Notes: a model not told the origin generated them from the sequence alone. A DNA stretch of 64,000 bases from Acidobacteriota bacterium (GCA_963663035.1 OY760074.1:2426967-2490966); one strand, 5' to 3'; shown: positions 13,309 through 56,382, counted from the first letter of the stretch. Numbers and translations are program-made.

Positions 13309-13447
13309 GGGCCCGCAGGCTAAAGCCTGCGGCTCTGATCGGAGCCAGCGAGGATCAGTCAGAGCCGTGGGCTTTAGCCCACGGGCCAGAGGGGCCGGAG
13401 GAAGCTCTGCCCGGGCCCGCAGGCTAAAGCCTGCGGCTCTGATCGGA
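13309..13447. repeat. REP-like element: two direct copies of a 35-bp hairpin repeat (13309-13343 and 13413-13447) flanking a second hairpin
   Basis: The repeat is gggcccgcaggctaaagcctgcggctctgatcgga (stem gcaggc/gcctgc). The second hairpin is gccgtgggctttagcccacgggc. The element lies downstream of the protease gene and upstream of uvrA. Confidence 0.6.
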
Positions 13448-13463
13448 GGTGGCACCCGAGACT

Positions 13464-15995: not shown

Positions 15996-16070
15996 GCTGT
16001 AGTGAAGTCACTTTCCACACATTCTCTCTTGTGTAAACGAAAAATGCGACCTTTTGTTCCGGAAAAGATG

Positions 16071-19493: not shown

Positions 19494-20690
19494 ATGGGCC
19501 AGGAAAAGGAACTGATCGACAAGATTCAACAGGTACTCAGGGAGTTCGACATTCCTGCCTGGCTCTTTTACGGCTTTCGGGATCTTGATCCGATTGCCAC
19601 CCGTATTCTCCAGTTCGGGCCTCATCAGCTGGCAACTCGGCGCTGGTTTTATCTCATTCCCGCAGAAAGTGAACCGAAGAGACTGGTCCACCGACTCGAA
19701 TCTTCCCATTTGGATCACCTGCCTGGCAGTAAGGAAGTCTATTTGAAATGGGAGCAACTACAAGAGCAGGTCAGGGCACTCTTAGAGGGCGTTTCGACGG
19801 TGGCCATGCAATTCTCAGAGAACAATGCCATACCTCATGTCTCGAGGGTGGATGCTGGAACAGTCGACCTGGTCCGCTCCTGCGGCCCAAGGGTCGTTTC
19901 CTCAGGAGATCTGATCCAGCGTTTTGAGGCCGTCTGGAGCCCCAGACAGGTCCAGCAACACCGTGCCACAGCTCTTGCCCTGACTGCCACTGTCAAGGCC
20001 GCTTTTGAGCAGGCTGCCGCTGAAATCTCTTCTCAGGGTGAGAGCAACGAGCTGAGCATCCAGCGCTTCATTTTGGATCGCTTTGAGCGGGATGGGTTGC
20101 TCACTGACCACTCTCCCATTGTGGCAGTGAATGAAAACAGCGCCAACCCACACTATCAGCCCAGCGCAGCAGAATACTCCACAATTCACAGAGATGATTT
20201 CCTGCTGATTGACTTATGGGCCAAGTCCAAAGAGGAAGACAGCGTGTATGCCGATATTACCTGGACAGCCTTTATGGGTGAGCGGATACCCGACAAGATC
20301 AACAAAATTTTCCAGGTCGTTCGCCAGGCTCGTGACCGGGGAGTGGACTTCTTGCGCGCCGGGTTTGAGGAAAGGAACCCTCCCCGGGGTTGGGAGGTGG
20401 ACGACGTCGTTCGCGAGAGCATCCGGAAGGCTGGCTACGAAAAATTCTTTGTCCATCGGACCGGTCACAATCTGGGCCAAGAGATACACGGCAATGGGGT
20501 CAACTTTGACAACCTCGAGACGCATGACACACGACAAGTCATCCCCGGTATCGGATGTACCATCGAGCCTGGGATCTATCTGGAAGGAGAATTCGGCGTC
20601 CGCAGTGAGATCAACGTGTTCTTCACCCAGGCAGGACCAGAAGTAACGACACCGCCTCAGGAAGAAATCTGGAGAACCACTGACAACTGA
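19494..20690 (+). CDS. M24 family metallopeptidase (Xaa-Pro aminopeptidase or creatinase type)
   Basis: The C-terminal pita-bread fold motif HRTGHNLGQEIHG...GCTIEPGIY...E. The ATG at 19494 overlaps the plsC stop. Confidence 0.8.
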   Translation: MGQEKELIDKIQQVLREFDIPAWLFYGFRDLDPIATRILQFGPHQLATRRWFYLIPAESEPKRLVHRLESSHLDHLPGSKEVYLKWEQLQEQVRALLEGVSTVAMQFSENNAIPHVSRVDAGTVDLVRSCGPRVVSSGDLIQRFEAVWSPRQVQQHRATALALTATVKAAFEQAAAEISSQGESNELSIQRFILDRFERDGLLTDHSPIVAVNENSANPHYQPSAAEYSTIHRDDFLLIDLWAKSKEEDSVYADITWTAFMGERIPDKINKIFQVVRQARDRGVDFLRAGFEERNPPRGWEVDDVVRESIRKAGYEKFFVHRTGHNLGQEIHGNGVNFDNLETHDTRQVIPGIGCTIEPGIYLEGEFGVRSEINVFFTQAGPEVTTPPQEEIWRTTDN

Positions 20691-20745
20691 CACCTGACAA
20701 CTGACAGGTGAAACGCTGACCGCTGACCGCTGACCGCTTCAACAG
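20680..20745. repeat. Heptamer repeat array: ACTGACA-type x4 then CGCTGAC x3. It overlaps the last codons and stop of the M24 peptidase gene.
   Basis: cactgacaactgacacctgacaactgacaggtgaaacgctgaccgctgaccgctgaccgc. Confidence 0.75.
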
Positions 20746-21459: not shown

Positions 21460-21525
21460 GATCACAGCTGGCAGCCCGGCAACGGTTGTCAGTTGTCAGG
21501 TGTCAGCGTTTCAGGGTTTCAGTGG
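21460..21525. repeat. Heptamer repeat array (GTTGTCA x2, GGTGTCA, GTTTCAG x2) between convergent genes
   Basis: ggttgtcagttgtcaggtgtcagcgtttcagggtttcagtgg. Confidence 0.7.
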
Positions 21526-27230: not shown

Positions 27231-27689
27231 CTACCTGATCGGATCCCCGTCCAGCCAGTCATAGCCGATTTCCGAATCATCGTGGGGAATACGACCTTCG
27301 TCCTCTGGATTGTAGGTGTGAGAAGTAGCGTAAAGAAGACTTGCGGGCCCGCTGATGCACTTGCAACCGTGAGCGACACCGGGGGGGATCTTGAGAACGC
27401 TTGCCTCGTGGCGATCCCCTAGCATCATTTCCATACTCTGACGGTAGGTAGACGATTCCGGTCGCTTATCGTACAAGACGACCTTCAAAACTCCCGTGCA
27501 GACATACCACCAGTCCGTCTGCTTGTTATGAATATGCCAGGCCTTGATGACTCCCGGGTGCATCAATGAGTGACTCCACTGCCCAAAACCCTCCTCGAAG
27601 AAATCGTCCGTCACCCGAATGATCTCGCGAAAAAACCCACGCTCGTCTCGGTGGGTCTTCAAACTTCTGACAACCACCCCATCAATCAT
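27231..27689 (-). CDS. RmlC-like cupin: dTDP-4-dehydrorhamnose 3,5-epimerase, or a sugar 3,4-ketoisomerase family member
   Basis: A 152-aa protein with DERGFFREI and WHIHNKQTDWWYV, typical of RmlC/FdtA-like cupins. Confidence 0.55.
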   Translation of the reverse strand: MIDGVVVRSLKTHRDERGFFREIIRVTDDFFEEGFGQWSHSLMHPGVIKAWHIHNKQTDWWYVCTGVLKVVLYDKRPESSTYRQSMEMMLGDRHEASVLKIPPGVAHGCKCISGPASLLYATSHTYNPEDEGRIPHDDSEIGYDWLDGDPIR

Positions 27690-28765
27690 AGAGGCGTAGC
27701 CTCGCTTAAGATTTTGACAATGCGTCTGGCGGCATCTCCATCTCCAAAGTCAAGCCGGCGTGCTTGAGGTGGCTTGATCGTTGCAACGGCATGAACGATG
27801 TCGGATTGATCAGCTCCAACCACTACGTTCCAGCCAGACTCTACGGTTTCAGTCCATTCTGTCTCCGGGCGTAGCGTTACACAGGGTACGCCGACAAAAT
27901 AGGCTTCCTTCTGTACACCCCCGGAATCGGTGAGGATCACTCGGGCATTCTGTTCAAGCATGAGCATGTCAAGGTAGCTTACCGGTTTGATGCTCTGGAC
28001 ATTGGGCATTTGAGATAAATCCAGTGCGCCATTCACCCCACTAAGACTGTGTTTCGTCCTGGGATGAATGGGGAAAACAATCGTCTCTTTTATCTCGGCA
28101 AAAGCACTAAGAATGCTGCACAGAGCTTCGGGAGAATCGGTATTGTAGGCACGGTGAACTGTGGCTAACAAGTAGTTTCCTGGCTTTAAATCCAGTTTCT
28201 CAAGTATCTTCGAGCGCTGGCGGGCGACATCGCCAAAGGACAACACCGAGTCGTACATGGTGTCTCCGACAAGGTGTACTCCCCTGGTAATGCCCTCTCT
28301 AGCCAGGTTCTCAATAGCGGTCTTGGTTGGGCAGAAGAACAGGTCAGAGCAGTGATCAGCAATCTGGCGATTACGCTCTTCGGGCATTTCACGATTGAAG
28401 GACCGCAAGCCAGCCTCAACATGGGCCAGGGGAACATTCAGTTTCACTGCAGCCAGGGCAGCCGCCAGAGTCGAATTGGCGTCACCATAAACAATGACCC
28501 AATCCGGCTTTTCCGACTGGAGAACTTCCTCCACACCCATCAGCATGTGAGCCGTTTGGAACCCATGAGTTCCTGATCCTACTCCTAAGTTCAGGTCGGG
28601 TTCAGGAAGTTCCAGTTCTTCAAAGAAAACGCGAGACATCTCCGTATCATAGTGTTGTCCAGTGTGTATCAAGATTTCCTGGTGATGGTTTTTCCTGAGC
28701 TCCTTACTGACGGGAGCAGCCTTGATAAACTGGGGGCGGGCTCCTACGATTGTGACGACTTTCAT
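27686..28765 (-). CDS. UDP-N-acetylglucosamine 2-epimerase (non-hydrolysing, WecB/WbpI family)
   Basis: MKVVTIVGARPQFIKAAPV...HVEAGLRSFN... Confidence 0.85.
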   Translation of the reverse strand: MKVVTIVGARPQFIKAAPVSKELRKNHHQEILIHTGQHYDTEMSRVFFEELELPEPDLNLGVGSGTHGFQTAHMLMGVEEVLQSEKPDWVIVYGDANSTLAAALAAVKLNVPLAHVEAGLRSFNREMPEERNRQIADHCSDLFFCPTKTAIENLAREGITRGVHLVGDTMYDSVLSFGDVARQRSKILEKLDLKPGNYLLATVHRAYNTDSPEALCSILSAFAEIKETIVFPIHPRTKHSLSGVNGALDLSQMPNVQSIKPVSYLDMLMLEQNARVILTDSGGVQKEAYFVGVPCVTLRPETEWTETVESGWNVVVGADQSDIVHAVATIKPPQARRLDFGDGDAARRIVKILSEATPL

Positions 28766-29880
28766 GGTTGAGTCTCAGAACCAACCATGGCGCCTTCTAA
28801 TGCAGCCACAACCTCCTGCACCTGTTGGTCGGACATCTCCGGGTAGACTGGGATGGCCAGGGTTTCGCGACTCATTTGTTCTGTAACCGCGAGATCACCC
28901 TCCTTTAATCCGAGAAACTGGCAGGGCTTGGTCAAGTGCAGGGGTTGGGGATAGTAGATAGCAGAGCCAATCCCTTTCTCTCTCAGAATTTGGATAACCT
29001 CGTCACGCTGCCTCAGTCGCACCACAAAAAGATGAAAAACGTGCTTGACCGAGCTGGCTTCATAAGGCACCCCTATGCCGAGATCAGAAAGTTGTTCCTT
29101 ATATTGGGCCGCCACCTCACGACGACGTTGGTTCCAGACATCAAGGTAGTTCAACTTTACCCTGAGGATTGCCGCCTGTAGCTCATCCAGACGACTGTTG
29201 TGCCCTGTCGTCTCGGGGAAGTACTTTTCCCGCCACCCGTGGGTTCGCAGCATTCGCGCCCGCTCGTAAGTTTCAGCGTCGTTGGTGACCACCATTCCCC
29301 CATCGCCATAGGCTCCCAGGTTCTTGCTTGGAAAGAAACTCAAACATCCTGCATCGCCCAGGCTTCCGGTTTTTCTGCCATCGTACTCGGCTCCCATGGC
29401 CTGGGCATTGTCCTCAATGACTTTTAAGCCGTGAGTCCCAGCCAATTCCAATAGGGGGCCCATAGAGGCTGGATGCCCATACATATGGACTGGAATGACG
29501 GCCTTGGTACTGGGTGTCAGCTGCTCTGTGACCTGCTGCACATCAAGACAGTAGGTGTCGGGTTCGATATCGACGAATACGGGTCTCGCACCCACCTGCA
29601 GAACCGCTTCAGCCGTAGCAAAGAAGGTATAGCTGGGCACAATCACCTCATCGCCAGCACCGATGCCTAGACTCTCCAAGGCGATGATCAGGGCGTCAGT
29701 GCCCGATGCCACCCCGATAGCATGTTTGACCCCCAGGTAGGCCGCCACTTCCTGTTCCAACTCTTGAACATTGGGACCAAGCACAAAGTGTCCCGACTCC
29801 AAGACCTGTTGAATCGCACCGTCAATTTCCGACTGAATTGCTCGATACTGAGCTTTTAAGTCAACCAGCGGTATTGTCAT
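28762..29880 (-). CDS. DegT/DnrJ/EryC1 family PLP-dependent sugar aminotransferase
   Basis: MTIPLVDLKAQY...HFVLGPNVQELEQEVAAYLGVKHAIGVASGTDAL. Start taken at the ATG at 29880. Confidence 0.85.
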   Translation of the reverse strand: MTIPLVDLKAQYRAIQSEIDGAIQQVLESGHFVLGPNVQELEQEVAAYLGVKHAIGVASGTDALIIALESLGIGAGDEVIVPSYTFFATAEAVLQVGARPVFVDIEPDTYCLDVQQVTEQLTPSTKAVIPVHMYGHPASMGPLLELAGTHGLKVIEDNAQAMGAEYDGRKTGSLGDAGCLSFFPSKNLGAYGDGGMVVTNDAETYERARMLRTHGWREKYFPETTGHNSRLDELQAAILRVKLNYLDVWNQRRREVAAQYKEQLSDLGIGVPYEASSVKHVFHLFVVRLRQRDEVIQILREKGIGSAIYYPQPLHLTKPCQFLGLKEGDLAVTEQMSRETLAIPVYPEMSDQQVQEVVAALEGAMVGSETQP

Positions 29881-30469
29881 GATCCGTCTCACTCGGACTT
29901 ACCTTGGGTCCTTCCTTTGAATAGCGGGTGCCGCAGCTGCCACATTCTGCCACCTTCTGGTCATCTTCCGGCCCAAAAATCAACTTTGTCCCACACTGAC
30001 AGACCCAGCCCCGAAGCCTTCCGGGATTCCCATAGACGAGGGCATAATCCGGGATGTCCTTGGTGATGACCGCACCAGCCCCCACAAAGGAGTAGCGCCC
30101 CACCATCATTCCACAAACAATGGTGGCGTTCGCTCCAATTGAGGCCCCTCGCTTGACCAGTGTTTGCTGATATTCATTTCTTCGAGAAACATGGCTGCGT
30201 GGATTCACCACGTTGGTGAACACCATCGAAGGACCCAGAAAGGCATAATCTTCTACGGTAACGCCCGTATAAACAGAAACGTTGTTTTGGATTTTGACAT
30301 GGTCACCAATGACCACATCAGAACCGATAAATACGTTTTGGCCGATATTGCAATCGTCCCCAACCTTGGCCCCTGCCATCAGGTGAGAGAAGTGCCAAAT
30401 CTTCGTTCCCGTGCCGACCTCTGCTCCCTCATCTACAAAACTGGATTCATGAGCGAAATAGTCTGTCAT
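29861..30469 (-). CDS. Hexapeptide-repeat sugar N-acetyltransferase (WbpD/PglD-like) with a C-terminal Cys4 zinc ribbon
   Basis: Left-handed beta-helix repeats, ending CQCGTKLIFGPEDDQKVAECGSCGTRY. Confidence 0.75.
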   Translation of the reverse strand: MTDYFAHESSFVDEGAEVGTGTKIWHFSHLMAGAKVGDDCNIGQNVFIGSDVVIGDHVKIQNNVSVYTGVTVEDYAFLGPSMVFTNVVNPRSHVSRRNEYQQTLVKRGASIGANATIVCGMMVGRYSFVGAGAVITKDIPDYALVYGNPGRLRGWVCQCGTKLIFGPEDDQKVAECGSCGTRYSKEGPKVSPSETDHDNTAG

Positions 30470-31476
30470 TTCGCTTCAGCCTCCGCTAGCTCGGACAGCG
30501 ACACCGGCAGACTGCCTGTCTCCAAGGACCTTTGGCTTGCCTCCAGGACCTTGAGCACCCTCAAGGCACTTTCACCGTCGGTCAACGGAGACGTGTGCTC
30601 GCGAATGCAGGTCAGAAAGTGCTCGCACTCGAGCCGCAGTGGTTCCGTCTCATCGAAAAACAAGGTTGTTTCCGCAGTCTGGCGGGGAACCGGAAGTCCA
30701 GCTTCCCACTCGATTCCCTGGTCATAAATCTTGAGTTTGCCCTCGCGAGCTGTGTCATCGAACACCGCCATTTTCTTCTCACCAATGACAACCAGTTTTT
30801 GTTCCTTGTAGGGGTGGAGCCAACTGACAAAAATGTGTGCTCTCACCCCATTTTCGAAAAACAGGCTGGTCACCGTCACATCCACAATGCCCGGCTGCAG
30901 GTAGCTTCCACCAGAAGCGGTCACCTCATTGGGCTCGGACTCTAATAGCTCGCAAATCACCGAGATATCGTGAGGGGCAAAGCTCCACAAGATATTTTCT
31001 TCCTGTCGAACCTTCCCAAGATTGAGTCGACTTGAATAGATGTACCAGATTCTACCCAACTCATTCTTCTGCACGATGTCTTGGAGCAACCTTACCGCTG
31101 GGTGGTAGTTGAGAATGTGACCCACCATGAGCAACACGCCACGGTCCTTGGCCAAGGTCACGAGTTCCCGTCCCTGCTCATACTTGAGCGCCAGCGGCTT
31201 CTCGACAAAAACGTTCTTGCCCCTCAGGACTGCTTCCTTGACATGTTCGTAGTGGGATTCAGCTGGTGTGGCAATTGCCACCGCCTGAATGCTGTCTTCA
31301 GTAAGTACTTCTTCCAAACGGGAGGTTCGGCGAATGTTGGGGTACTCCTCAGAGTAAGCCTGCAGGAGCTCGTCGTTGCTGTCACAAATGCAGCCCAGTG
31401 CTCCCAGCTGGGCAAAATTGCGCACCAGGTTTTTACCCCAGTAGCCACAACCGACAACAGCTAAGCTCTGGTCCAT
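30466..31476 (-). CDS. Gfo/Idh/MocA family NAD-dependent UDP-sugar oxidoreductase (WbpB-like)
   Basis: N-terminal Rossmann motif LAVVGCGYWGKNLVRN. First gene of the minus-strand cassette. Confidence 0.8.
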   Translation of the reverse strand: MDQSLAVVGCGYWGKNLVRNFAQLGALGCICDSNDELLQAYSEEYPNIRRTSRLEEVLTEDSIQAVAIATPAESHYEHVKEAVLRGKNVFVEKPLALKYEQGRELVTLAKDRGVLLMVGHILNYHPAVRLLQDIVQKNELGRIWYIYSSRLNLGKVRQEENILWSFAPHDISVICELLESEPNEVTASGGSYLQPGIVDVTVTSLFFENGVRAHIFVSWLHPYKEQKLVVIGEKKMAVFDDTAREGKLKIYDQGIEWEAGLPVPRQTAETTLFFDETEPLRLECEHFLTCIREHTSPLTDGESALRVLKVLEASQRSLETGSLPVSLSELAEAEAK

Positions 31477-31518
31477 TTACCCATTCCCCAATCTCAATTT
31501 CGGCCAAGTACCCACAGG

Positions 31519-31594
31519 ACTTCGTAGAGTCACCCTATAATATAAAATTAGAGTGGCATAGAGAGTGGCATAACTCGTTGCTTGTCATGAAAGG
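31519..31594 (+). promoter_or_regulatory. Conserved promoter/leader element, copy A: ACTTCGTAGAGTCACCCTATAATATAAAA...TCGTTGCTTGTCATGAAAGG
   Basis: Highly similar to 36344-36407. It contains a perfect TATAAT and lies immediately 5' of the plus-strand cassette. Confidence 0.4.
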
Positions 31595-32683
31595 ATGCAT
31601 TTGACAGTTCACTTGGAGACTGTGAATAGGGCGCTGAGAATAGGGATGATCGGAGTGGGTTTCTGGGGTCCGAAACTTCTTCGAAACCTTGTTGAGATGA
31701 ACGAAGCGGATGTTGTGGCCGTGGCGGATCTGGCTGAAACAAATAGAAGAAAGGTCGGACAAACGTATCCCAGCCTGAGGGTCATTGAAAACCACAGAGA
31801 GATTTTGGAGAACCCTGACATCGAGGCAGTCGTCATCGCCACCCCTGCGGCGACCCACTTTGATCTGGTCCAGGAGGCTCTGAAGGCGGGTAAACATGTT
31901 TTGGTAGAGAAACCGCTTTGCACCAGCACCGATGAGGCGTTGCAATTGACGCAAATGGCCTCCCAACGAGGTGTGATTCTCATGGTGGGTCACACCTTTC
32001 TCTACAACGCCGCAGTCCGAAAGGCGAAGGAATATATCGATAGTCGTGAACTGGGCAGTGTTCTCTATCTTTACGGTAGGAGAGTGAATCTGGGGAAAGT
32101 TCGACAGGATGTGAACTCACTGTGGAATTTTGCACCCCACGACATTTCCATAGTGAACTACTTGTTGAGTTCCGTTCCCGAGTCGGTCCAGGCCTTCGGA
32201 GCGTGCTACATTCAGAAGGACATTGAAGACGTCGTTTTCCTCAACATGCGCTACCCAGATGGGGTGATCTGCTCCCTGCACTTGAGTTGATTGGATCCCA
32301 AAAAGGTTCGGCGGATGACGATTGTCGGAACCGAAAAAATGCTGATCTACAACGACGTTTCAAGCGACCAGAAAATACAACTCATTGACAAAGGCGTTGA
32401 AATCAAGGGTCGGGAGCCCGGCAATGACGAGATGGTGAATTTTGGTGAATATCAGGTACTGCTCCGTTCCGGCGACGTTTTGATCCCCAAGGTGAATTTT
32501 ATTGAGCCCTTGCGAGTAGAGTGCACCCATTTTGTGGAGTGCTGTTTCAAAGGAGATACCCCTTTGACCGATGGGTTGAACGGTCTCCAGGTGGTTGCCG
32601 TTCTGGAAGCCGCCTCCCGTTCACTGCAAAACTCAGGCTCTGAGGTGGAAGTCGATTATCTTGAAGCCAGGGCAGAAGCTTGA
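31595..32683 (+). pseudogene. Gfo/Idh/MocA oxidoreductase paralogue interrupted by an in-frame TGA (32288-32290) at a conserved Trp codon
   Basis: ORFs 31595..32290 and 32291..32683 are in the same frame. HLS*LDPKKV aligns with FVSWLHPYKE of the paralogue at 30466..31476. Confidence 0.7.
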
Positions 32684-33738
32684 AGGTCCTTTCTGTTCTG
32701 GGCACCCGGCCCAATTTCGTGAAGGAGTTTCTGGTACATCGGGAATTCCAGAGAAGGGAAATCAAGGAAATCATCGTTCATACTGGACAACACTATGATT
32801 ACGAAATGTCTCGAGTGTTTTTTAATACTTTCGATCTTCCCGATCCTCACTACCATTTCGAGATTGGAGCCAGAAGCAGTGTGGCCTCAACTGCAGAAAC
32901 GATGCTGAGCCTCGAGGATGTGCTGCACAAGGAAAAGCCGAACGCCGTTCTTTCCTATGGAGATGTCAATTCGACTACCGCAGCCGCCATAGCCGCCGTA
33001 AAGACCAAGATCCCGTTCGTGCACGTTGAAGGAGGAATTCGGACACCTTTTCTGTACAATCCGGAGGAGATCAATCGTCGGCTTTCCGATTGTGTGGCCG
33101 ATTTGATTTTCACGTGTACTCGTACCGACACGGAAAATCTCTGCCGGGAAAACGTTCCCAGGGAGCGGATCTGCTTTTCGGGAGATTTGATGAAAGATGC
33201 ATTGCTGTACACACTGGAGACACAATCCATTCCCGTCAAGAGAGGCGACTATGTGGTGGCAACGATTCACCGTGAAGAAAACGCTGACAATCCGCAGCGA
33301 CTTCGAGAGATTATGCATGGCCTGGTTCAGAGCGAACAGATCATCCACTTTCCTGTACATCCTCGAACCAGAAAACGCTTGGAAAAGTTCGGGATTCTGG
33401 AAGAGGTGAAGAGCTGCGACCGGATTCGGATGACAGAGCCCACAGGATATCTTGAATTTATACGTCTCCTGGCAGGTGCTGACAAGGTCGTGACTGATTC
33501 GGGCGGAGTGCGAAGAGAGGCTTTTCTTTTGAGAAAACCGGTGATTATTCCAGTTGAGCTGGTGTGGTTTCCGGAAATTCTGGAAGCGGGTTGGAAGATC
33601 CATGTTCCACCCAAGGCTTCAGAAGTGGCTGAGGCTATCCGGGAGTTTGAGCCCACAGGACCGCACAACCCCGAGATCTTCGGTAACGGGGAGTCGGCGC
33701 GAAAGATCGTCGACAACATCGTAGAGCATTATCAATAG
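32680..33738 (+). CDS. UDP-N-acetylglucosamine 2-epimerase-like (WecB/WbpI family), second copy
   Basis: MKVLSVLGTRPNFVKEF...FVHVEGGIRT. A TTG start overlaps the preceding TGA. Confidence 0.8.
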   Translation: MKVLSVLGTRPNFVKEFLVHREFQRREIKEIIVHTGQHYDYEMSRVFFNTFDLPDPHYHFEIGARSSVASTAETMLSLEDVLHKEKPNAVLSYGDVNSTTAAAIAAVKTKIPFVHVEGGIRTPFLYNPEEINRRLSDCVADLIFTCTRTDTENLCRENVPRERICFSGDLMKDALLYTLETQSIPVKRGDYVVATIHREENADNPQRLREIMHGLVQSEQIIHFPVHPRTRKRLEKFGILEEVKSCDRIRMTEPTGYLEFIRLLAGADKVVTDSGGVRREAFLLRKPVIIPVELVWFPEILEAGWKIHVPPKASEVAEAIREFEPTGPHNPEIFGNGESARKIVDNIVEHYQ

Positions 33739-33780
33739 TGAAACCGGGCCTTCACGTCGTCGATGAGATGAAACAGTTTC

Positions 33781-34353
33781 ATGCCGATGAACTACTTCAA
33801 ACATCCGAAGGCACTCGTTGAGACCAACGAAATCGGAGCGGACACCCGAGTGTGGGCTTTTGCCCACATCATGAAGGGTGCTCGGGTGGGCAGCGGATGC
33901 AACATCTGCGAGCAGGTATTCATCGAAAGCGGTGCGATCGTTGGGAATCTGGTCACGGTCAAGAATGGCGTCAGCCTTTGGGACAAGATAACTATAGAAG
34001 ACCGGGTTTTTATCGGGCCCAATGCTGCTTTTACCAATGACATGTGGCCTAGAAGCAGAGCCGGTGGGGATTTGCTTCCGACGCTGATTCGCTACGGTGC
34101 AACGATCGGAGCCAATGCGACCTTCCTGTGCGGAATCATCATCGGAAAGTTTGCATTCATCGGAGCCGGTTCGGTCGTTACCCGGGATGTACCGGACTAC
34201 ACCCTCGTTTTGGGAAATCCGGCCAGAAAAGGGGGCTATGTGTGCGAATGTTCCAGGAAGCTCATCCAGGAGGATCCCAACTCTTACCGGTGCCAGCGGT
34301 GTTCGAAAGCGTATCTGGCGACCGCGGAAGGAATCCTGACACCGAATGACTGA
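33781..34353 (+). CDS. Hexapeptide-repeat sugar N-acetyltransferase with a C-terminal Cys4 zinc ribbon, second copy
   Basis: A paralogue of 29861..30469, ending CECSRKLIQEDPNSYRCQRCSKAY. Confidence 0.75.
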   Translation: MPMNYFKHPKALVETNEIGADTRVWAFAHIMKGARVGSGCNICEQVFIESGAIVGNLVTVKNGVSLWDKITIEDRVFIGPNAAFTNDMWPRSRAGGDLLPTLIRYGATIGANATFLCGIIIGKFAFIGAGSVVTRDVPDYTLVLGNPARKGGYVCECSRKLIQEDPNSYRCQRCSKAYLATAEGILTPND

Positions 34354-34370
34354 GAGCGTGTTGCTCACTG

Positions 34371-34445
34371 GAATGTGGGAGCCGCCTCAGTGCGGCGAAT
34401 GGGCCTCTTCGCGGCCTGAGGCCGCTCCCACATTCTCCCAACCGC
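34371..34445. terminator. Long nested hairpin between convergent genes: a 20-bp stem with one mismatch enclosing an inner 8-bp stem
   Basis: gaatgtgggagccgcctcag ... ctgaggccgctcccacattc. Confidence 0.5.
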
Positions 34446-34462
34446 AAGGACAGGAAGGCGGG

Positions 34463-36316
34463 CTAGCGCTTCGCATACACCTGAACTTTGCCGAAGTTCA
34501 TCATCTGGGTAAAGCCGAAACTCCCATCCCTCAAACCCCGATAATATTGCAGATGTTCTCTGTACTGGGCCTCACCGGCGCCAAACTGGCTGGCTTTGGT
34601 GGGATCTACGAACCTTTGTGATATCTCTTCACTCACAATGACAACGTCCGGTGCGAAAATCTCGAGGTCTTCACTCGTCCCTGCGAAAGTCAGTTGAGCC
34701 TCCGCGAAGGCGGGCGGTACATAGCTGTAGCTGTCGTACAGCACTCGAGAATCCGCCTCGAAGGTCTCGGCCAGCCACAGACCGGCCCTCACCGCGGGGC
34801 TCTTCTCCACACGCAATCTCTCTGTAGCTCGAAACTCTTGAACTCTTGTGATGGAGCTAGCAAAATCTGCGGCACCCAGCACGAGAAAGAGCACGAGGAC
34901 AGGAACGGCGAACTTGCGAGAGACGGCGTCGAGAGACGCTCGTGCGAGTTGAGCCAGGAACTGTCCAGCGAGGATGATCAGGACTGGAAACACCGGCAAG
35001 AGATAACGAGGCTCCATCATGCGAACTCGCATCACCAGGAAGCCCAGGTACAAGAGGACCCAAAGCCAAAGAATCACCTCGGGTCGGATGACTGGCCCAG
35101 CCAAGCGCTGACCGATCGACAGATGCTGGGCCTCTTTAGTGGCCAGGTCGTGGAAGAGATAAAGAAGACCCACTGCAGCCATTGCGGCAAATGTAACCCC
35201 CAGCAAATCCTGTGAGACGAGCAGCGACAGCCATCCTTGCACGCCTCCCTCACCCCGAAAATAATGGCCGAAGGCCACATGCCTGGATTGGGAAATCATG
35301 CCGTAGAGGAAGTTGAGTTTCCAAAGCGAGAAGGGTGAGCCAATGACGAAGGCTGTGATAAAGGCAGCCACCGAAATACCAACTTGCGACAGTGTTCTTG
35401 CTAGAAAATCACTTCTGGCCAGGAGCCTCCAGGGCCAGCGCAGGATGCCGAGAACAATGAGGACACATCCTGTAGCACCCAGCAAAATCCTGAACTCCCT
35501 GATTACCGGCAAGTTGCTGCTCTCTACAGCACCATCGGAAGTCAATAAGCGAGCCACAAGTTCAACCCGCATCACCAATCCCAGCGAAACGCTCCCAATT
35601 CCCGCCGCCAGAGTTAGACCACGGGCCCATTTTCTGACCAGCAGGGCAGCGCTCCGAAATGGGCCCACCTCATCGCGGCCTGCGTTCCCCCCAACCGCCA
35701 CAAGCCAGATGACTGGGAGCAGAAAGAGGCCTGAGTACTTGCAGGCAAAAGCCAATCCAGCGGAAGCGGAGGCAAGAACAAGAGACTCCCGGCTTTTGTC
35801 GCCGCCTAGCCTGCAACAGAAATACAGCCCAAGCATGAGGAAGAACAGTTGAGGAACGTCTGGGTGAGCATAAACCGACCATTCGATAAAATTCAACGAG
35901 ATCCCACAGAGCAGGCAGGCCGACACCCAACCGACAAGACGACCGAAGTATCTGCGGGCTAGAAAGAAAGTGCAGAGAACCGTGGCTGCACCAGCCACTG
36001 CCGATACCAGGCGTAAACTGATGATAATCGACTGATCGGTCACTGGAGTGAGGAAGCTCATCAAGAACAGAGGAATGAGAGCGAGGTTGAATTGTAGATG
36101 CCCATACTGCGAGTAGTCGATTCGCAGGGTCCCCTGGGACAGCGCCTGACGCAAAAGCTCCAATTGGGTGGGTTCATCTGAGTTGAAAACAGAGACCAGG
36201 CGAATATTCTCGGATGCGGTGGGGATCATGGCCGTCGCGAGCCACACGAAGTAGCAGCCCGTCAAGACCGCAACGCATATTCCCTCGAGGTTTCTGTTCA
36301 TTGGAATCTCCGGCAT
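34463..36316 (-). CDS. Large polytopic membrane protein, putative GT-C fold glycosyltransferase (ArnT/PMT-like) with a C-terminal periplasmic domain
   Basis: 617 aa with more than 10 predicted TM helices, an early DEP motif (VFNSDEPTQLELL) and a soluble C-terminal domain of about 150 aa. The family assignment is tentative. Confidence 0.45.
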   Translation of the reverse strand: MPEIPMNRNLEGICVAVLTGCYFVWLATAMIPTASENIRLVSVFNSDEPTQLELLRQALSQGTLRIDYSQYGHLQFNLALIPLFLMSFLTPVTDQSIIISLRLVSAVAGAATVLCTFFLARRYFGRLVGWVSACLLCGISLNFIEWSVYAHPDVPQLFFLMLGLYFCCRLGGDKSRESLVLASASAGLAFACKYSGLFLLPVIWLVAVGGNAGRDEVGPFRSAALLVRKWARGLTLAAGIGSVSLGLVMRVELVARLLTSDGAVESSNLPVIREFRILLGATGCVLIVLGILRWPWRLLARSDFLARTLSQVGISVAAFITAFVIGSPFSLWKLNFLYGMISQSRHVAFGHYFRGEGGVQGWLSLLVSQDLLGVTFAAMAAVGLLYLFHDLATKEAQHLSIGQRLAGPVIRPEVILWLWVLLYLGFLVMRVRMMEPRYLLPVFPVLIILAGQFLAQLARASLDAVSRKFAVPVLVLFLVLGAADFASSITRVQEFRATERLRVEKSPAVRAGLWLAETFEADSRVLYDSYSYVPPAFAEAQLTFAGTSEDLEIFAPDVVIVSEEISQRFVDPTKASQFGAGEAQYREHLQYYRGLRDGSFGFTQMMNFGKVQVYAKR

Positions 36317-36343
36317 CCCTGGTAACTGCCGCTTCTACACAGA

Positions 36344-36407
36344 ACTTCGTGGAGTCAACCTATAATATAAAAGAAGAATGGCGTTAATCGTTGCTTGTAC
36401 TGAAAAG
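36344..36407 (+). promoter_or_regulatory. Conserved promoter/leader element, copy B: ACTTCGTGGAGTCAACCTATAATATAAAA...TCGTTGCTTGTACTGAAAAG
   Basis: Aligns with copy A at 31519. Immediately 5' of the methyltransferase operon. Confidence 0.4.
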
Positions 36408-37165
36408 TGATCATGACCCGGTCTGACGACCCTTCAATTCGCACTTTTTATGATCGCTGGTATGAAGCGCGATCTGAGGGGAAAGACATTGATCGTCTCT
36501 GTCGCATTCGTGTCATCCGGAATTTCCTGCGTGCGCTTTCCCTTGGAGATAGTAACATCCTGGAGCTTGGATGCGGCCAAGGGTGGCTGGCAAACGTGCT
36601 CTCGCAGTACGGTCGGGTGACGGCGGTTGACTTGTCAGCCGAGGCAATTCTCGCAGCCAAATCAGCCTACCCTCACATTGAGTTCCGTGCCGGTAGTTTC
36701 CTTGAGATGACCGACCTGCCAAGAGACTGCGATCTGATCGTCTCGTCAGAGGTGGTTGAGCATATGGTCGCCGAAGAGCAGATTCGATTCCTGGCTCTCA
36801 TCAGCGATCACCTTCGCCCGGGAGGATCAGTGATCTTGACCACGCAGAACCGAGAAGTAGCAGGAAGATTTCTGGAGAGTGGCGATCCGGATGCGCCAGA
36901 TCATCTCCAACCGATCGAGCAGTGGCTTTCGATTGAAGAGCTTCGTGCCATGCTCGAGCCAATGTTTGAGATCCTGAAGATGAAAACGGTCCTCTTCTTT
37001 CATCCATTCTTGCGCCGGCATCGGACGCTCAACTGGCTAAGGTATGTGGCGTATTGCCGGCTCGGCCTCTTGCCTGTGATTGAAGGCAGTCTCGATGGAG
37101 GGCCAGGAGGGATGTACATGTGTTGTCTGGCGAGGAAAGCGGCACACCAGGGACGCTGTGGATAG
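36407..37165 (+). CDS. Class I SAM-dependent methyltransferase
   Basis: ILELGCGQGWLANVL (motif I) and LRPGGSVILTTQN. Confidence 0.75.
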   Translation: MIMTRSDDPSIRTFYDRWYEARSEGKDIDRLCRIRVIRNFLRALSLGDSNILELGCGQGWLANVLSQYGRVTAVDLSAEAILAAKSAYPHIEFRAGSFLEMTDLPRDCDLIVSSEVVEHMVAEEQIRFLALISDHLRPGGSVILTTQNREVAGRFLESGDPDAPDHLQPIEQWLSIEELRAMLEPMFEILKMKTVLFFHPFLRRHRTLNWLRYVAYCRLGLLPVIEGSLDGGPGGMYMCCLARKAAHQGRCG

Positions 37166-37242
37166 TGGCTATGCCGACAGGACGCATCAGGAAGAATCCC
37201 TAGGATCACAAGGGCTCACACAACTCTGGTAACTACCGCCGC

Positions 37243-38385
37243 TTGGCGACGACCTACCAACGAGCATTCTACATAGTTTTGTATAGTAGTGGCATGGGTT
37301 TCGAGGTTCTGACTGGGCTGTTTTGCGGACATCGAATTGGACCCCAGCAGATGGGCCAGCACCGTCTGCCTGTTCGAATGTGGGTCGGACTTTCACGAGC
37401 CGTGTCAGGATTTCTGCTCAGGCATCGTTTTCGAGGGCGAGGGCGGCTCCTGAGCCTGGCGACGCGATGGCTGATGCCAAAACCTGCAGGGCCGACGATC
37501 GTGCCGGTTCTCGGGGACCTGCTCATGTGGGTGGACCCTGCGGACGGCGGGTTAGAGCAATCCCTGTATTATTTTGGGGCCTACGAAGCGGGCACCCTTC
37601 ACGTGATGGCGAGGTGTTTGCACCCCGGTGACACGTTTTTGGACATAGGCGCCAACATCGGCTTAATGACCTTGACGGCCTCTCGGGCGGTGGGCGGCAC
37701 GGGACAGGTGCACGCCTTTGAGCCCCTTCCCGAGACTCGCGCGATACTGGAACGCAACCTGGTGCTCAATCACACGCAGGGCGTCGTGGTCCATGGGACA
37801 GCCCTGGGGGCGAGGGCGCGGAGACGCACACTCTATTCTCCTGAAGGCACAAACCGGGGAATGGCTACGCTCCTTCCGCCGGCCACGGCACGCTCGTCAG
37901 TCGACGTGGAAGTGCTGCCTCTCGATGAGATTCTACAGGCACAGGGATTGATTAACGTGCGTATGATGAAAATCGATGTGGAGGGCTGGGAACTGGAAGT
38001 GCTCAAAGGGGCCACCACCTTCCTTGGGCAAGAGAATCCGCCGATCCTTTGCATTGAATACAGCGCCATGCGTCCAGTGCAAGGTGGCACGCTCCTGGAT
38101 CTGGCCCGCTGGCTTACCCGCATCAACAGCTATCGCCTTTATCGGCTGGATCTTGGCAAGAACCATCTGGGGCTGCTGAAGCTCGTTGGGTCCGAACAGG
38201 AGCTGCCGTATCATGACAATCTTTTTTGTGTGACCGACCAACAACGGACTACGCTACCGGCCTCGCTTTTTGCAGACCGTACAGCTCGGTTAACGGGTTC
38301 CCGCAACGAGTCAAGGTCACAGGGTATCCTTTCCCAAAGGGACTGTCCCCTCCCTGTCAAGAAAGAGGACTATTGCCGCGCATGA
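37243..38385 (+). CDS. FkbM family methyltransferase
   Basis: FLDIGANIGLMTL...QVHAFEPLPET...MMKIDVEGWELEVLKGA. The true start probably lies downstream of 37243. Confidence 0.7.
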   Translation: MATTYQRAFYIVLYSSGMGFEVLTGLFCGHRIGPQQMGQHRLPVRMWVGLSRAVSGFLLRHRFRGRGRLLSLATRWLMPKPAGPTIVPVLGDLLMWVDPADGGLEQSLYYFGAYEAGTLHVMARCLHPGDTFLDIGANIGLMTLTASRAVGGTGQVHAFEPLPETRAILERNLVLNHTQGVVVHGTALGARARRRTLYSPEGTNRGMATLLPPATARSSVDVEVLPLDEILQAQGLINVRMMKIDVEGWELEVLKGATTFLGQENPPILCIEYSAMRPVQGGTLLDLARWLTRINSYRLYRLDLGKNHLGLLKLVGSEQELPYHDNLFCVTDQQRTTLPASLFADRTARLTGSRNESRSQGILSQRDCPLPVKKEDYCRA

Positions 38386-41693: not shown

Positions 41694-41720
41694 AACCTGC
41701 TTCCTACAGGTGGCAAAGCT

Positions 41721-42884
41721 ATGCATTTGTGCTTCATGGGTAACTTGGAAAGTATTCATCTCAGGAGGTGGATCCAGCACTTTATCGAGCGAGGACACCA
41801 GGTCTCTTTGCTTTCATACTCAGGTGAATCGGTCCAAATGGAGGGGTTGAAGGTACATTCCCTCCTGGAGAACGGTTCTGGAGATACTCAACCCCTTCCG
41901 AGCAATTCCGCTCCCCCTACAGCTCCCCCTCGGGCACCTGAGTGGGCTCAGCGTCTCCTTCCCTTTGGCCTTCTCACCGCCAAGATGAGTCTGAAATGGC
42001 TGCGCCATGGGATCAAGAAAAAGCTGAAGGAAATTCAGCCGGACATTTTACATGGGCATTTTCTAGTGGAGTACGGGTTGTATGCCGCTATCACGGGATT
42101 CTCACCGTTAGTCGTCTCTGCATGGGGTTCGGACCTTCTGCTTCATCCTCAGAGGTCCTTGCTTAACAGGTTGTTGGTCCGCTATACGGCCAAAAGAAGT
42201 TCTTTGTTCCATGTTGCATCTCCTTTCATGGTCACGAAGCTAGAAGAAATGGGACTCCGTCATGACAACATCGTCATTGCCAATCTTGGGGTGGGCGAAG
42301 AGTTCCTTGATGTCCAAACTCAGTCAACGGCAGGGAGAAGTGTATTGGTGAGCACGCGGAAGCTTGGTCAAGTCTACAATCCAGCTACTCTTATCCGGGC
42401 CATGAAGTTGGTGAGCAAGGACCATCCTCAGGTTTTGCTGAGATTAGCGGGAGAAGGTCCGCTTCGCCAAGGTCTCGAAGCTTTGGTGGCTGAGTTGGGC
42501 TTGCAGGCCAATGTTGAGTTCTTGGGCAGTCTCTCTGAAGAAGATGTCAAACAGACTCTGAGCGAAGCCGATCTCTATCTTTCTACCTCGCTCTCGGATT
42601 CAGCCTCTATCGCATTGCTGGAGGCCATGGCGGTCGGACTTCTTCCGATTGTATCGGACATTGCGGGAAACAGGGAATGGATCACAGACGGTGTCAACGG
42701 GTTCCTTGTTGACCCTCACGACACCGATACGATGGCCGCGAGGATCACACTGGCTTTGAGCAGGGCCGACTGGAGACAAGAGGTGTGTCAGCAAAATAAG
42801 GAGATTGTGAAACAGCGAGCTCTCCGGAAAAACCAGATGGACATCGTGGAACAGGCCTACCGGGAGCTACTCTCGCAGAAATAG
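41721..42884 (+). CDS. GT4 glycosyltransferase (tandem paralogue 1a)
   Basis: MHLCFMGNLESIHLRRWIQHF...EAMAVGLLPIVSDIAGNREWITDGVNGFLV. About 70% identical to the next gene. Confidence 0.8.
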   Translation: MHLCFMGNLESIHLRRWIQHFIERGHQVSLLSYSGESVQMEGLKVHSLLENGSGDTQPLPSNSAPPTAPPRAPEWAQRLLPFGLLTAKMSLKWLRHGIKKKLKEIQPDILHGHFLVEYGLYAAITGFSPLVVSAWGSDLLLHPQRSLLNRLLVRYTAKRSSLFHVASPFMVTKLEEMGLRHDNIVIANLGVGEEFLDVQTQSTAGRSVLVSTRKLGQVYNPATLIRAMKLVSKDHPQVLLRLAGEGPLRQGLEALVAELGLQANVEFLGSLSEEDVKQTLSEADLYLSTSLSDSASIALLEAMAVGLLPIVSDIAGNREWITDGVNGFLVDPHDTDTMAARITLALSRADWRQEVCQQNKEIVKQRALRKNQMDIVEQAYRELLSQK

Positions 42885-42890
42885 GATGCC

Positions 42891-44045
42891 ATGCATTTGT
42901 GTTATATGGGTAGGTTCGAAAGTGTTCATCTCAAGAGGTGGATCAAGCACTTTATCGAGCAAGGACATCAGGTCTCTTTGCTTTCTTTCTCAGGTGCATC
43001 ACTTCAGATGGAGGGCTTGAAAGTACATTCCCTCCTGGCGAACTGTTCTGGAGACTCTCCACCACCCACGAGCACGCCCACTCTTCTCTTTGGAGCGCAA
43101 GAGTGGGCTCACCGCCTCCTTCCCCTGGGCCTCCTAACGGCCAGAATGAGTCTTAAGTGGCTGCGCCATGGAATCAAGAGAAAGCTGGAGGAGATTCAGC
43201 CCGACATTTTACATGGGCACTTTCTGATGGAGTATGGTTTCTACGCTGCCACTACGGGATTCTCACCGTTAGTTGTCTCTGCATGGGGTTCGGACCTTCT
43301 GATTCATCCTCAGAGGTCCTTGATCAACAGGTTGTTGATCAACCACACGCTCAAAAGAAGTTCTTTAGTCTACGTTATGGCTCCTTTCATGGCCAGAAAG
43401 ATTGAAGAGATGGGGATCCATAGAGGGAAAATCGTTTCGGCCAATTTTGGGGTAGATGAAGCTTTACTCGATGTACAGGCTCAATCAAGGAATGGGAGAC
43501 CGATACTGGTATGCACCAGGATGCTGGACCACGTCTATAATCACGCCACGCTGATTAAAGCTTTAGCCGTGGTACGCAAAGCCCATTCGGAGGTTTTGCT
43601 TAGATTAGCGGGAGACGGTCCCTTACGGAAGCCTCTGGAAGCCTTGGTGAATGAGTTGAGTTTGCAGACAAATGTTGAGTTTGCAGGCTTTCTTTCAGGA
43701 AGTAAATTAATAGGGGCTCTGAGCACTGCGGACCTCTATCTCTCCACCTCTCTGTCCGATGGAACCTCGGTGTCACTACTGGAAGCCATGGCGGTCGGAC
43801 TTTTTCCGATTGTATCGAACATTGAGGGAAACCGGGACTGGATCGCTGACGGCGCCAACGGATTCCTTGTTGACCCTCACGACCCAGATGCGCTGGCCGC
43901 AAGAATCACCCTGGCTTTGAGTAAGGTCGACTGGAGACGAGAGGTGTGTCAGCAAAATAAGGAGATTGTCAAACAGAGAGCTCTCCGGAAAAGCCAGATG
44001 GAGATCATGGAACAGGCCTACCGCGAGCTATTATCGGAGCAATAG
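42891..44045 (+). CDS. GT4 glycosyltransferase (tandem paralogue 1b)
   Basis: MHLCYMGRFESVHLKRWIKHF...EAMAVGLFPIVSNIEGNRDWIADGANGFLV. Confidence 0.8.
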   Translation: MHLCYMGRFESVHLKRWIKHFIEQGHQVSLLSFSGASLQMEGLKVHSLLANCSGDSPPPTSTPTLLFGAQEWAHRLLPLGLLTARMSLKWLRHGIKRKLEEIQPDILHGHFLMEYGFYAATTGFSPLVVSAWGSDLLIHPQRSLINRLLINHTLKRSSLVYVMAPFMARKIEEMGIHRGKIVSANFGVDEALLDVQAQSRNGRPILVCTRMLDHVYNHATLIKALAVVRKAHSEVLLRLAGDGPLRKPLEALVNELSLQTNVEFAGFLSGSKLIGALSTADLYLSTSLSDGTSVSLLEAMAVGLFPIVSNIEGNRDWIADGANGFLVDPHDPDALAARITLALSKVDWRREVCQQNKEIVKQRALRKSQMEIMEQAYRELLSEQ

Positions 44046-44125
44046 GATTTCAGTTGTTAGTCAGGAGATACGGCTAGCTCTTCGAATGGGCTTTTGACGG
44101 GAGAACCACTTCGAGGCAACTTCAG

Positions 44126-45298
44126 ATGAAGATACTCTACGTCCTCTATCATGAGTATGAGCGAATGCCCATACATGCTGTTGAAGTGATCGAGGAGATG
44201 AACCGCCAAGGGCACCAGGTGGTGGTTGTGACTGCCATTTCACGCCAATTTCTGCGAGGACTCGCCTGGCCCCCCACCATTCAAGTCCATCGGGTCCCGA
44301 TCGTGAATCTTAAGGGTCTTCGAATGATCTCTTTCTGTCTGAGTTCCTTGCTGCTTCTGCCTCGCTGGTGCCTGAAAGAATGCCCGAATATTGTTTATGA
44401 TCGCTTTTCACTCACCTCTCTCGTGACAGTCTGGATGACACGCCTCTTAGGTATTCCCCTGGTTTTGGAGATCAATGGAATCGTGAGCGATGAGTTAGCC
44501 TTGGGTCGGAGTGCGCGTTGGCGTCGTCAACTCTTTAAGCTGGTTGAGGGTTGGGTGTTTCGAGGTGGTGACCATCTCATCACCGTGACCGAAGGTATTC
44601 GTAAGTGGGTCAGCTCTGCTCATTCGGTGCCGCTTGAAAACATAGAGACCATCCTCAATGGCACCAATCCTGGCAGGTTTAAGCCCGTTGATAAGGGTCT
44701 GGCTCGACAGGAACTTGGGCTGGATCCTGAGCGGCCTATCGTCGGCTATCTAGGAAGCCTGTTCCCCTGGTGCGGTCTGGAAGTTCTCATTGAAGCCTCG
44801 CTTATCATTTTGGAAAGTATTCCTGATGGACTGTTTCTGATCGGAGGTGGTCAGGCAGAAATGAAAGTGGCATTGGAGGGAAAAGTGAAGCACCTGGGTG
44901 CGGAACAGCACTTTGTCTTTCAGGGTGAAGTTCCCTGGGATCAGGCCGCTCTGTTTATCAGTGCCTTCGATGTTGCAGTGGCTCCAGCCCAACTCTCAGA
45001 GCGCTCAGGAATCTCACCTCAGAAGGTTTATGCATACCTGGCATGCCAACGCCCTGTGGTGGGAAGTGATATCGAGGGACTGGGTGACATGCTGACACAG
45101 GAGAGGGTTGGATTCTCCTTTCCCTCAGGCGATGCTGAGAGAATGGCCGGAGCCATCATCCAACTGCTTCAGGATCGGGAATTGGCGCAGACGATGGGTG
45201 AGCGGGGAAGACGGTTAGTGTTGGATCGTTTCACCTGGGAACGAGTGGTCCAGAAGACAGTACGGATTTTCAAGGACATCTTGGAATCACGGTGTTGA
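44126..45298 (+). CDS. GT4 glycosyltransferase (tandem paralogue 2a)
   Basis: MKILYVLYHEYERMPIHAVEVIEEMNRQGHQVVVV... Confidence 0.8.
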   Translation: MKILYVLYHEYERMPIHAVEVIEEMNRQGHQVVVVTAISRQFLRGLAWPPTIQVHRVPIVNLKGLRMISFCLSSLLLLPRWCLKECPNIVYDRFSLTSLVTVWMTRLLGIPLVLEINGIVSDELALGRSARWRRQLFKLVEGWVFRGGDHLITVTEGIRKWVSSAHSVPLENIETILNGTNPGRFKPVDKGLARQELGLDPERPIVGYLGSLFPWCGLEVLIEASLIILESIPDGLFLIGGGQAEMKVALEGKVKHLGAEQHFVFQGEVPWDQAALFISAFDVAVAPAQLSERSGISPQKVYAYLACQRPVVGSDIEGLGDMLTQERVGFSFPSGDAERMAGAIIQLLQDRELAQTMGERGRRLVLDRFTWERVVQKTVRIFKDILESRC

Positions 45299-45334
45299 AA
45301 CGACTGAGATGAGAATGAGACAGGGCAAACTGAG

Positions 45335-55016: not shown

Positions 55017-55111
55017 AAACCCTGCTTCTATGTTACAAAATAAGAGGGGCCGACCGTGCAGCCCTCAACAGGAAACGTTACCGTATTGATGGGACGAGGT
55101 ACTGTGGAAGA

Positions 55112-56364: not shown

Positions 56365-56382
56365 CTCCACCAGCTTCCCCCT

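Follow-up and report, generated by a model that had tools for sequence, protein, structure and literature searches.

In the capsular polysaccharide loci of Bacteroides, invertible promoters are combined with UpxY anti-termination, and a related promoter-leader region heads multiple transcription units. In other bacteria, the JUMPstart sequence is a short conserved element located directly upstream of many polysaccharide clusters (PMC5399914). The cassette described here was compared with both. Like the JUMPstart/ops sequences of the RfaH-dependent polysaccharide, hemolysin and F-pilus operons of enterobacteria, it is a short non-coding block 5' of the first gene, is associated with a promoter and leader, and stands before non-homologous gene sets. 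Unlike them, it has no sequence similarity to JUMPstart, no ops motif and no Rfam match at E<=1, and it itself includes the -10 and the DNA upstream of it. It is also limited to a narrow clade of Acidobacteriota, and no NusG paralog was found among the window proteins. The cassette resembles JUMPstart in role only.

Set beside the description of the Bacteroides capsule loci, the cassette is similar in that multiple polysaccharide transcription units begin with a related promoter-leader region. It differs in that its units have no upxY-like first gene and in that its promoter carries TATAAT rather than the TAnnTTTG of Bacteroidetes. No consistent flanking inverted repeats were found around the five copies examined, and therefore the cassette is no inverton of the Bacteroides type; in addition, the copies are all oriented alike with respect to the gene that follows. 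The cassette is best filed as a lineage-restricted repeated promoter/leader module at polysaccharide cassette boundaries, a member of neither the JUMPstart nor the Bacteroides family.

The window, that is, the whole stretch of DNA analyzed, comprises 64,000 nucleotides from an Acidobacteriota bacterium (GCA_963663035.1 OY760074.1:2426967-2490966). Its polysaccharide locus occupies ~21.5-62.3 kb. The locus contains two inverted paralogous aminosugar cassettes (Gfo/Idh/MocA oxidoreductase, hexapeptide acetyltransferase, DegT aminotransferase, UDP-GlcNAc 2-epimerase), seven GT4 glycosyltransferase genes and one GT2 gene, several SAM methyltransferases, a flippase, two asparagine-synthase-like amidotransferases, a B12/radical SAM enzyme and a Wzc-like tyrosine kinase. 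Counted from the order of ORFs, about seven transcription units are present in the locus:

Unit 1, minus strand: operon starting at 31476
Unit 2, plus strand: aminosugar cassette, headed by copy c1
Unit 3, minus strand, 34463-36301/36316: PMT_2/GT39-like membrane glycosyltransferase gene, alone
Unit 4, plus strand, ~17 kb from 36413: methyltransferase/glycosyltransferase operon, headed by copy c2
Unit 5, minus strand: radical SAM gene
Unit 6, plus strand, 55112: GT4 gene
Unit 7, minus strand: wzc operon

A preliminary description of this DNA had proposed a promoter/leader cassette shared by several of these units. For two of them, the plus-strand aminosugar cassette and the long methyltransferase/glycosyltransferase operon, a homologous putative promoter-plus-leader cassette was indeed revealed. 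Their likeness, first given as ~65 alignable nt, is real and extends further, to ~95 nt. Judged by sequence, c1 and c2 are paralogous copies of one ~95-nt promoter-and-leader block. Repeat finding aligned 31513-31557 with 36338-36382 (45 nt at 87%) and 31562-31592 with 36375-36405 (31 nt at 81%), the link between the copies being given by repeat families D11 and D20. The following elements were detected:

31513-31608, plus strand: c1 (nhmmer E 7.5e-27), with promoter core CACAGGACTTCGTAGAGTCACCCTATAATATAAAA, -10 TATAAT at 31536-31541, and a leader that contains a 12-nt tandem duplication (31550-31561 / 31562-31573) and ends ...TCGTTGCTTGTCATGAAAGGATGCATTTGACAGT
36314-36406, plus strand: c2, the short form (nhmmer E 9.3e-31), with -10 TATAAT at 36361-36366
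37196-37243, plus strand: remnant (nhmmer E 2.8e-5) consisting of the left (upstream) module only, CCCTAGGATCACAAGGGCTCACACAACTCTGGTAACTACCGCC

Both c1 and c2 head a transcription unit in a divergent gap, and their leaders are 45-75 nt long. Copy c1 lacks the upstream left module and begins only at the -35 position; it lies in a 118-bp gap between two inverted paralogous Gfo/Idh/MocA genes. Copy c2, divergent from the PMT_2-family gene, has a partial left module (CCCTGGTAACTGCCGC) in which ~26 nt are deleted relative to its relatives. Its leader is shortened by ~50 nt and ends TCGTTGCTTGTACTGAAAAG directly 5' of the methyltransferase start (ATG 36413). The remnant, in which ACTTCGT and TATAAT are both missing, separates the first methyltransferase gene of the long operon from the second.

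The repeated leader also bears on the annotation of the gene following c1. The ATG at 31595, taken as its start codon in the preliminary description, proved to fall within the repeated leader, and a related metagenome contig (L002) has ...GGATGCATTTGACAGT in a non-coding context. The alternative ORF start called in a near-identical strain (L016), TTG 31601, is likewise inside this non-coding sequence. GTG 31625, preceded by GGAG, is the more plausible start of the oxidoreductase, and an annotated start at 31595 or 31601 is probably wrong. It should be mentioned that an in-frame TGA (32288-32290) splits this Gfo/Idh/MocA gene into ORFs of 231 and 130 aa. In the near-identical strain L017 its ortholog is uninterrupted (360 aa); in L016 it is split as well. 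The gene is probably a recent pseudogene, and copy c1 may no longer matter, given the in-frame TGA in the first gene of its cassette. The two aminosugar sets (oxidoreductase, acetyltransferase, epimerase) are inverted around c1 (27686-31476, minus strand, versus 31625-34353, plus strand), and an inverted repeat of 73% identity connects 30962-31028 with 32082-32148 in these paralogous sets.

The motif from which the cassette was originally recognized, ACTTCGT-N8-CCTATR, occurs exactly three times in the window, at the positions first reported for it: 31519 (plus), 36344 (plus) and 54854-54834 (minus). No exact matches are expected in shuffled sequences. When up to two mismatches were allowed, three extra matches appeared in the window, all of them in coding sequence and in a number within chance expectation. 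A six-copy nhmmer profile, applied to the whole window at E<=10, detected c1, c2 and the remnant (37204-37243) and nothing more. Among the sites named in the preliminary description, only c1 and c2 are related to each other. Its wider claim, that the cassette marks several units and the whole locus, could not be upheld, as copies are present at two of ~7 transcription units, in addition to the promoter-less remnant at 37196-37243. Locus-wide co-regulation by a special factor is thus not supported.

The third site (54834-54854, minus strand) turned out to be one arm of an inserted element:

54822-55015: MITE-like insertion, palindromic, 194 bp, in the gap of 306 bp that separates the radical SAM gene from the GT4 gene

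The insertion has terminal inverted repeats of 25 nt (54820-54844 / 54993-55017; repeat I21) with 88% complementarity and is flanked by a TA target duplication (54820-21 and 55016-17), the filled site reading ...TA-GCCGGG...CCCGGC-TA... In a relative whose radical SAM gene is 95% identical (L013), the insertion is absent and a precise empty site is found, ...GCGGCTCTCTC-TA-CACCCTGT... (CTCTC-TA-CACCC). Folded as DNA, the 194-bp insert forms a near-complete hairpin (-58 kcal/mol, z = -7.8). Two further copies were found in a sister genome: one of ~155 bp (L020:931-1084), flanked by TA and located between two convergent gene ends, and one reduced to a 30-bp mini-palindrome, a minimal hairpin (L020:57-82). 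Having inverted ends, a TA duplication, an empty site and further copies, the 54822-55015 insert is therefore a MITE by definition.

The motif is carried by only one arm of this MITE. In the other arm, which is on the plus strand and directed toward the GT4 gene at 55112, the sequence is CACTGCAGTAGAAAATTTATTCATAAT and the motif is missing. The motif-bearing arm (ACTTCGT-N8-CCTATG in the window) reads CACTTCGCTACGAAAACCTATTCATAAT in the longer copy of the sister genome and contains there the near-motif CACTTCGCTACGAAAACCTAT; therefore, the motif is ancestral to that MITE arm. The third site is identical to the c1/c2 consensus at 17 of 32 positions and was not detected by the six-copy profile at E<=10, and a match with two runs totalling at least 12 nt arises in ~26% of simulated windows. 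Of the third copy that had been reported upstream of the radical SAM gene, the exact motif match stands; the site itself is an arm of an unrelated MITE. We concluded that its resemblance to the promoter cassette is coincidental. Short gapped motifs common to intergenic regions may stem from unrelated repeats, and here a MITE arm mimicked a promoter motif. The sequence CATAAT, a candidate for outward promoter activity, is present in both MITE ends (54833-54828 and 55004-55009).

Correia elements have a TA duplication, which is present at 54822-55015 too. Similarly to these elements of Neisseria (Correia/CREE) and other promoter-bearing bacterial MITEs, the insertion belongs to a family of ~150-200 bp with long terminal inverted repeats and multiple copies, is located immediately upstream of genes and has sigma-70-like -10 sequences in its ends. 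MITE size and promoter content are described for the Correia/CREE type, the ends of which act as outward promoters (PMC10969869). Unlike them, the element at 54822-55015 is of unrelated sequence and was found in three copies in the ~85 kb examined, and one copy of its family is flanked by converging genes, a position in which any activity would be that of a hairpin/terminator.

The degenerate copy that had been described upstream of wzc (62374-62404, minus strand) has five mismatches to the 13-position motif, was missed by the profile and therefore does not count as a copy. A terminator-like hairpin (62398-62386) within a 52-codon ORF (62363-62521) overlaps this site, which lies ~130-170 nt from the end of an insertion element:

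~62534-63789: IS3-family element with orfA (HTH_Tnp_1, 62594-62872), orfB (rve, 62725-63765) and 33-nt imperfect terminal inverted repeats

The distance from this element to wzc, downstream of it, is ~185 nt, and the related contigs L019 and L020 carry the same insertion. The element may have displaced the native promoter or an upstream gene of the wzc operon. The 52-codon ORF was considered as a remnant of Wza and rejected, having no Pfam support.

Five further copies of the cassette were revealed in related metagenome contigs, before at least four different downstream genes. A metagenome scan with the motif pattern returned seven loci, of which L002 was the sole true relative. The pattern missed the copies in L009 (TATAATGTAA) and L011b (ACTGCGA) because it was too strict. 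Contigs L009, L010 and L011, as well as the near-identical strains L016-L018, were found through the protein neighbours of the PMT_2 gene. The six-copy profile detected no additional copies in ~100 kb of related sequence. As judged from ~100 kb of sequence from this genome and close relatives, the cassette is restricted to one narrow clade of uncultured Acidobacteriota. The copies have the following surroundings:

L002: upstream of ACP / SDR / AMP-ligase genes
L009: between PMT_2 and an unnamed gene
L010: partial copy
L011a: between PMT_2 and the methyltransferase ortholog
L011b: between a 314-aa methyltransferase gene and the same unnamed gene as in L009
c1: upstream of the oxidoreductase gene
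c2: upstream of the methyltransferase gene

In an alignment of eight sequences the long form of the cassette is ~150-165 nt in length and is composed of three parts: a left module (CCCTAGGACCACAAAGGCTCACACATCTCTGGTAACTGCCGCC), a promoter core (TCTACACAGAACTTCGTAGAGTCACCCTATAATATAAAAG) and a leader (AAGAGTGGCGTTAATCGTTGCTTGTAATGAAAGGATGYATTTGACAG..TTTTAGCCTCATAGTCGCAGCAATCTGAATCGT). The copies are homologous, share their orientation and their position ahead of a gene, and have different genes downstream. Their boundaries differ: c1 lacks the left module, the remnant at 37196-37243 consists of the left module alone, c2 has internal deletions, and L011b includes 8 nt of PMT_2. At its left edge L011b has GCCGGCAT, which is the start region of PMT_2 in reverse complement, and therefore the boundary of this copy lies in the neighbouring gene. 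The gene order is PMT_2, copy, unnamed gene in L009 and PMT_2, copy, two methyltransferase genes, copy, unnamed gene in L011. Thus, the two contigs differ by exactly the two methyltransferase genes between L011a and L011b, an indel bounded by direct copies. The differing boundaries, the boundary inside a gene and the indel between copies therefore point to a spread by segmental duplication and recombination rather than by transposition. A MITE reading of c1 and c2 was rejected; they have no terminal inverted repeats, and their boundaries vary, one of them being within a neighbouring gene.

The perfect -10 and non-canonical -35 noted in the preliminary description were confirmed: TATAAT is preceded, 17 bp upstream, by CACAGG in c1 and CACAGA in c2, each with 2/6 identity to TTGACA. 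The -10 is intact in every full copy, relatives included, in the eight-sequence alignment. The best alternative -35 is TACACA (4/6) at a spacing of 19 bp, and no TG of an extended -10 (TGn) is found upstream of the -10 in c1 or c2. A scan for the canonical sigma-70 consensus called neither copy because the -35 fails. Canonical promoters do exist in this lineage, both at the tmRNA gene (TTGCAA-18-TATACT) and in the equivalent intergenic region of a more distant relative, L012 (TTGACC-17-TACAAT); therefore, the weak -35 is a real peculiarity of the block. All full copies are oriented toward a downstream gene that has no other obvious promoter and the start codon of which is 45-170 nt away. Promoter activity of the full copies is predicted from position, orientation and the consensus -10 only.

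Several other candidate signals in the cassette were considered and rejected. The perfect TTGACA at the end of the leader has no -10 at 16-18 bp after it in any copy. CTCTAC-N10-GTAGAG, a possible operator overlapping the -35 region, has its perfect form only in L002 and L011a; c2, L009 and L010 have a degraded version, and c1 has none. The inverted repeat CACCCTA...TAGAGTG around the -10 is imperfect and not kept in c2. Conservation of the cassette as a sign of selection was dropped as well. Orthologous copies are ~93% identical, and the identity of 4-fold degenerate sites in the flanking PMT_2 and methyltransferase genes (0.89-0.92) is as high as that of the element; therefore, conservation gives no evidence of selection. 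As to the PMT_2 gene itself (34463-36301), its amino-acid identity to the proteins of L009, L010 and L011 (0.82-0.92) is no higher than the identity at 4-fold degenerate sites (0.84-0.91), which suggests that this glycosyltransferase may be under relaxed or diversifying selection.

In our opinion c1 and c2 are probably paralogous copies of a lineage-specific promoter-plus-5'UTR block that was moved by segmental duplication/recombination and acts as a -10-driven promoter of the housekeeping sigma. The block would likely have its home between the divergently transcribed PMT_2-family glycosyltransferase gene and methyltransferase operon, and from this intergenic region segmental duplication and homologous recombination could have put all or part of it before other polysaccharide gene cassettes. 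A full copy would most likely be driven mainly by TATAAT, with CACAGR (17 bp) or TACACA (19 bp) as a weak -35. Transcription is predicted to start ~7 nt downstream of the -10, in an A-rich tract, and to yield a common leader of 45-150 nt; the start site and any co-regulation are inferred. In a second role, the copies could serve as homology stretches at cassette boundaries, letting gene blocks be gained or lost. Promoter function is suggested by the invariant -10, the constant orientation, the location at the heads of transcription units in divergent gaps, and the lack of any other promoter-like sequence there. These same features speak against c1, c2 and their relatives being neutral scars, by-products of cassette shuffling and of the inverted aminosugar duplication with no function beyond that of the original intergenic region. 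Every full copy keeps TATAAT and the correct orientation directly before a gene without another obvious promoter, and c1 and c2 each head a unit in a divergent gap. The scar reading is unlikely, even with the variable boundaries (c1, the remnant at 37196, L011b with 8 nt of PMT_2), a copy identity equal to the neutral expectation and the nonsense codon in the cassette driven by c1 in its favour. A regulon promoter, in which ACTTCGT-N8-CCTAT is recognized by a dedicated activator or alternative sigma co-regulating the whole locus, is a distinctly unlikely reading. It would explain the combination of a perfect -10 and a poor -35, typical of activator-dependent promoters, in a lineage whose other promoters are canonical, and also the recurrence of the exact motif at a third intergenic site facing a gene. 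However, this third site is a MITE arm missing from a 95%-identical relative; almost the same motif (CACTTCGCTACGAAAACCTAT) recurs in another copy of the MITE, at a place where two genes converge, and the sister arm on the side of the GT4 gene is without it. The profile search gives no link of the site to c1/c2, the probability of a two-run match by chance in a window is ~0.26, and five of ~7 transcription units have no copy. Nor does the promoter sequence of an ECF sigma encoded in the window, GGAAC-N16-CGTT (likely its autoregulated promoter, 16060-16036), fit the cassette, in which GAAC and CGT are only 2 nt apart, and Pfam scans of the window proteins revealed no obvious regulator family in the locus.

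The leader, conserved after the promoter in all copies (AGTGGCRTTAATCGTTGCTTGTMATGAAAGGATG.ATTTGACAG), raises the question of a JUMPstart-like function, in which the transcribed 5' leader would recruit a specialised NusG paralog (RfaH, UpxY, LoaP-like) or another anti-termination factor and RNA polymerase would thereby read through the 17-kb operon. Besides the conserved leader, this reading draws on the location of the cassette at the head of long polysaccharide operons, c2 preceding ~17 kb of co-directional genes, and on the fact that JUMPstart, too, is a short conserved element directly upstream of many polysaccharide clusters (PMC5399914). Several results speak against it. The ops core GGCGGTAGnnTG, with one mismatch allowed, was not found in the cassette, and its single match in the window (25173) is coding and within chance expectation. 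At the gathering threshold Rfam detected only tmRNA in the whole window, and at E<=1 it detected no family in 31400-37400 or in L002, L009 and L011. The leader RNA folds no better than shuffled sequence (z-scores -1.4 to +1.8), and copies more than 85% identical are too alike for covariation. The leader of c2 is ~50 nt shorter and the operon has not been lost, and no NusG/KOW family was matched by Pfam among the window proteins scanned. We regard the JUMPstart-like leader as quite improbable. The same holds, to our mind no less strongly, for the broader proposal of an Acidobacteriota counterpart of JUMPstart, a portable promoter-plus-leader module by which a dedicated factor (a specialised NusG paralog, or an activator compensating for the missing -35) would switch on exopolysaccharide operons and which would act as a recombination handle between strains. 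Sigma-54 promoters have the consensus GG-N10-GC (TGGCAC-N5-TTGCW) with a strictly held spacing. The leader contains conserved TGGC and TTGC blocks in all copies, so that TGGCRT-N6-TTGCT could be taken for a -24/-12 promoter dependent on an enhancer-binding protein, as in exopolysaccharide loci of the PEP-CTERM/XrtA type; proteins of the locus do resemble the amidotransferase and tyrosine kinase families of the XrtA system, below curated cut-offs. However, TGGCRTTAATCGTTGCT is GG-N11-GC in all copies, one nucleotide too long, and neither rpoN nor a gene for an enhancer-binding protein was found in the window, which makes this promoter barely credible.

If the promoter-plus-leader block is active, it would offer the first handle on the transcription of exopolysaccharide operons in this uncultured lineage of Acidobacteriota. 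It would also be a concrete example of repeated regulatory DNA serving as cassette boundaries for polysaccharide diversification, one relative differing by the genes between copies. Its wider significance is limited by the narrow clade and the inferred function.

Several other features of the leader and the window should be mentioned. A mini-ORF in the leader, ATGAAAGGATGCATTTGA (MKGCI), was rejected, as L009 has only a shortened form of it and c2 none, and it lacks a ribosome-binding site. A 9-nt long-range pairing, TGGCGTTAA / TTAACGGCA, was seen at L009:119-127 / 248-256 and L011:356-364 / 485-493, only in the context of L009 and L011b. Here TTAACGGCA stands directly before the start codon of the unnamed gene, 120 nt from the leader bases TGGCGTTAA, and translational control specific to this context is possible.

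Two pairs of GT4 genes are tandem duplicates with 75-85% DNA identity: 41721-42884 with 42891-44045, and 44126-45298 with 45335-46513 (41718-46513 in all). Between the convergent ends of GT4 and amidotransferase genes lies a repeat structure (56215-56365) in which a 19-nt unit (GGGAAATGTGGGGACAAAG) is repeated four times in tandem, with a near-perfect palindrome of 38 nt (56289-56365) after it; the structure is possibly a bidirectional terminator made of repeats.

Two ECF sigma genes were found in the window. One of them (15393-15995) belongs to an envelope-stress-like module (13464-16070) together with an HtrA-like PDZ protease and a 178-aa gene that has no Pfam match and may possibly encode an anti-sigma; the second is located at 5381-5968. 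A family of short tandem repeats rich in CTGACA or CTCCTGTCTCC was revealed in several intergenic regions on both strands (2473-2505, 8714-8795, 9433-9518, 20673-20740, 21487-21513). Finally, GC-rich hairpin units of the REP-like kind (GGGCCCGCAGGCTAAAGCCTGCGGC...) are located at 13309-13448, between uvrA and the HtrA-like protease gene; of the three, two are in direct and one is in inverted orientation.
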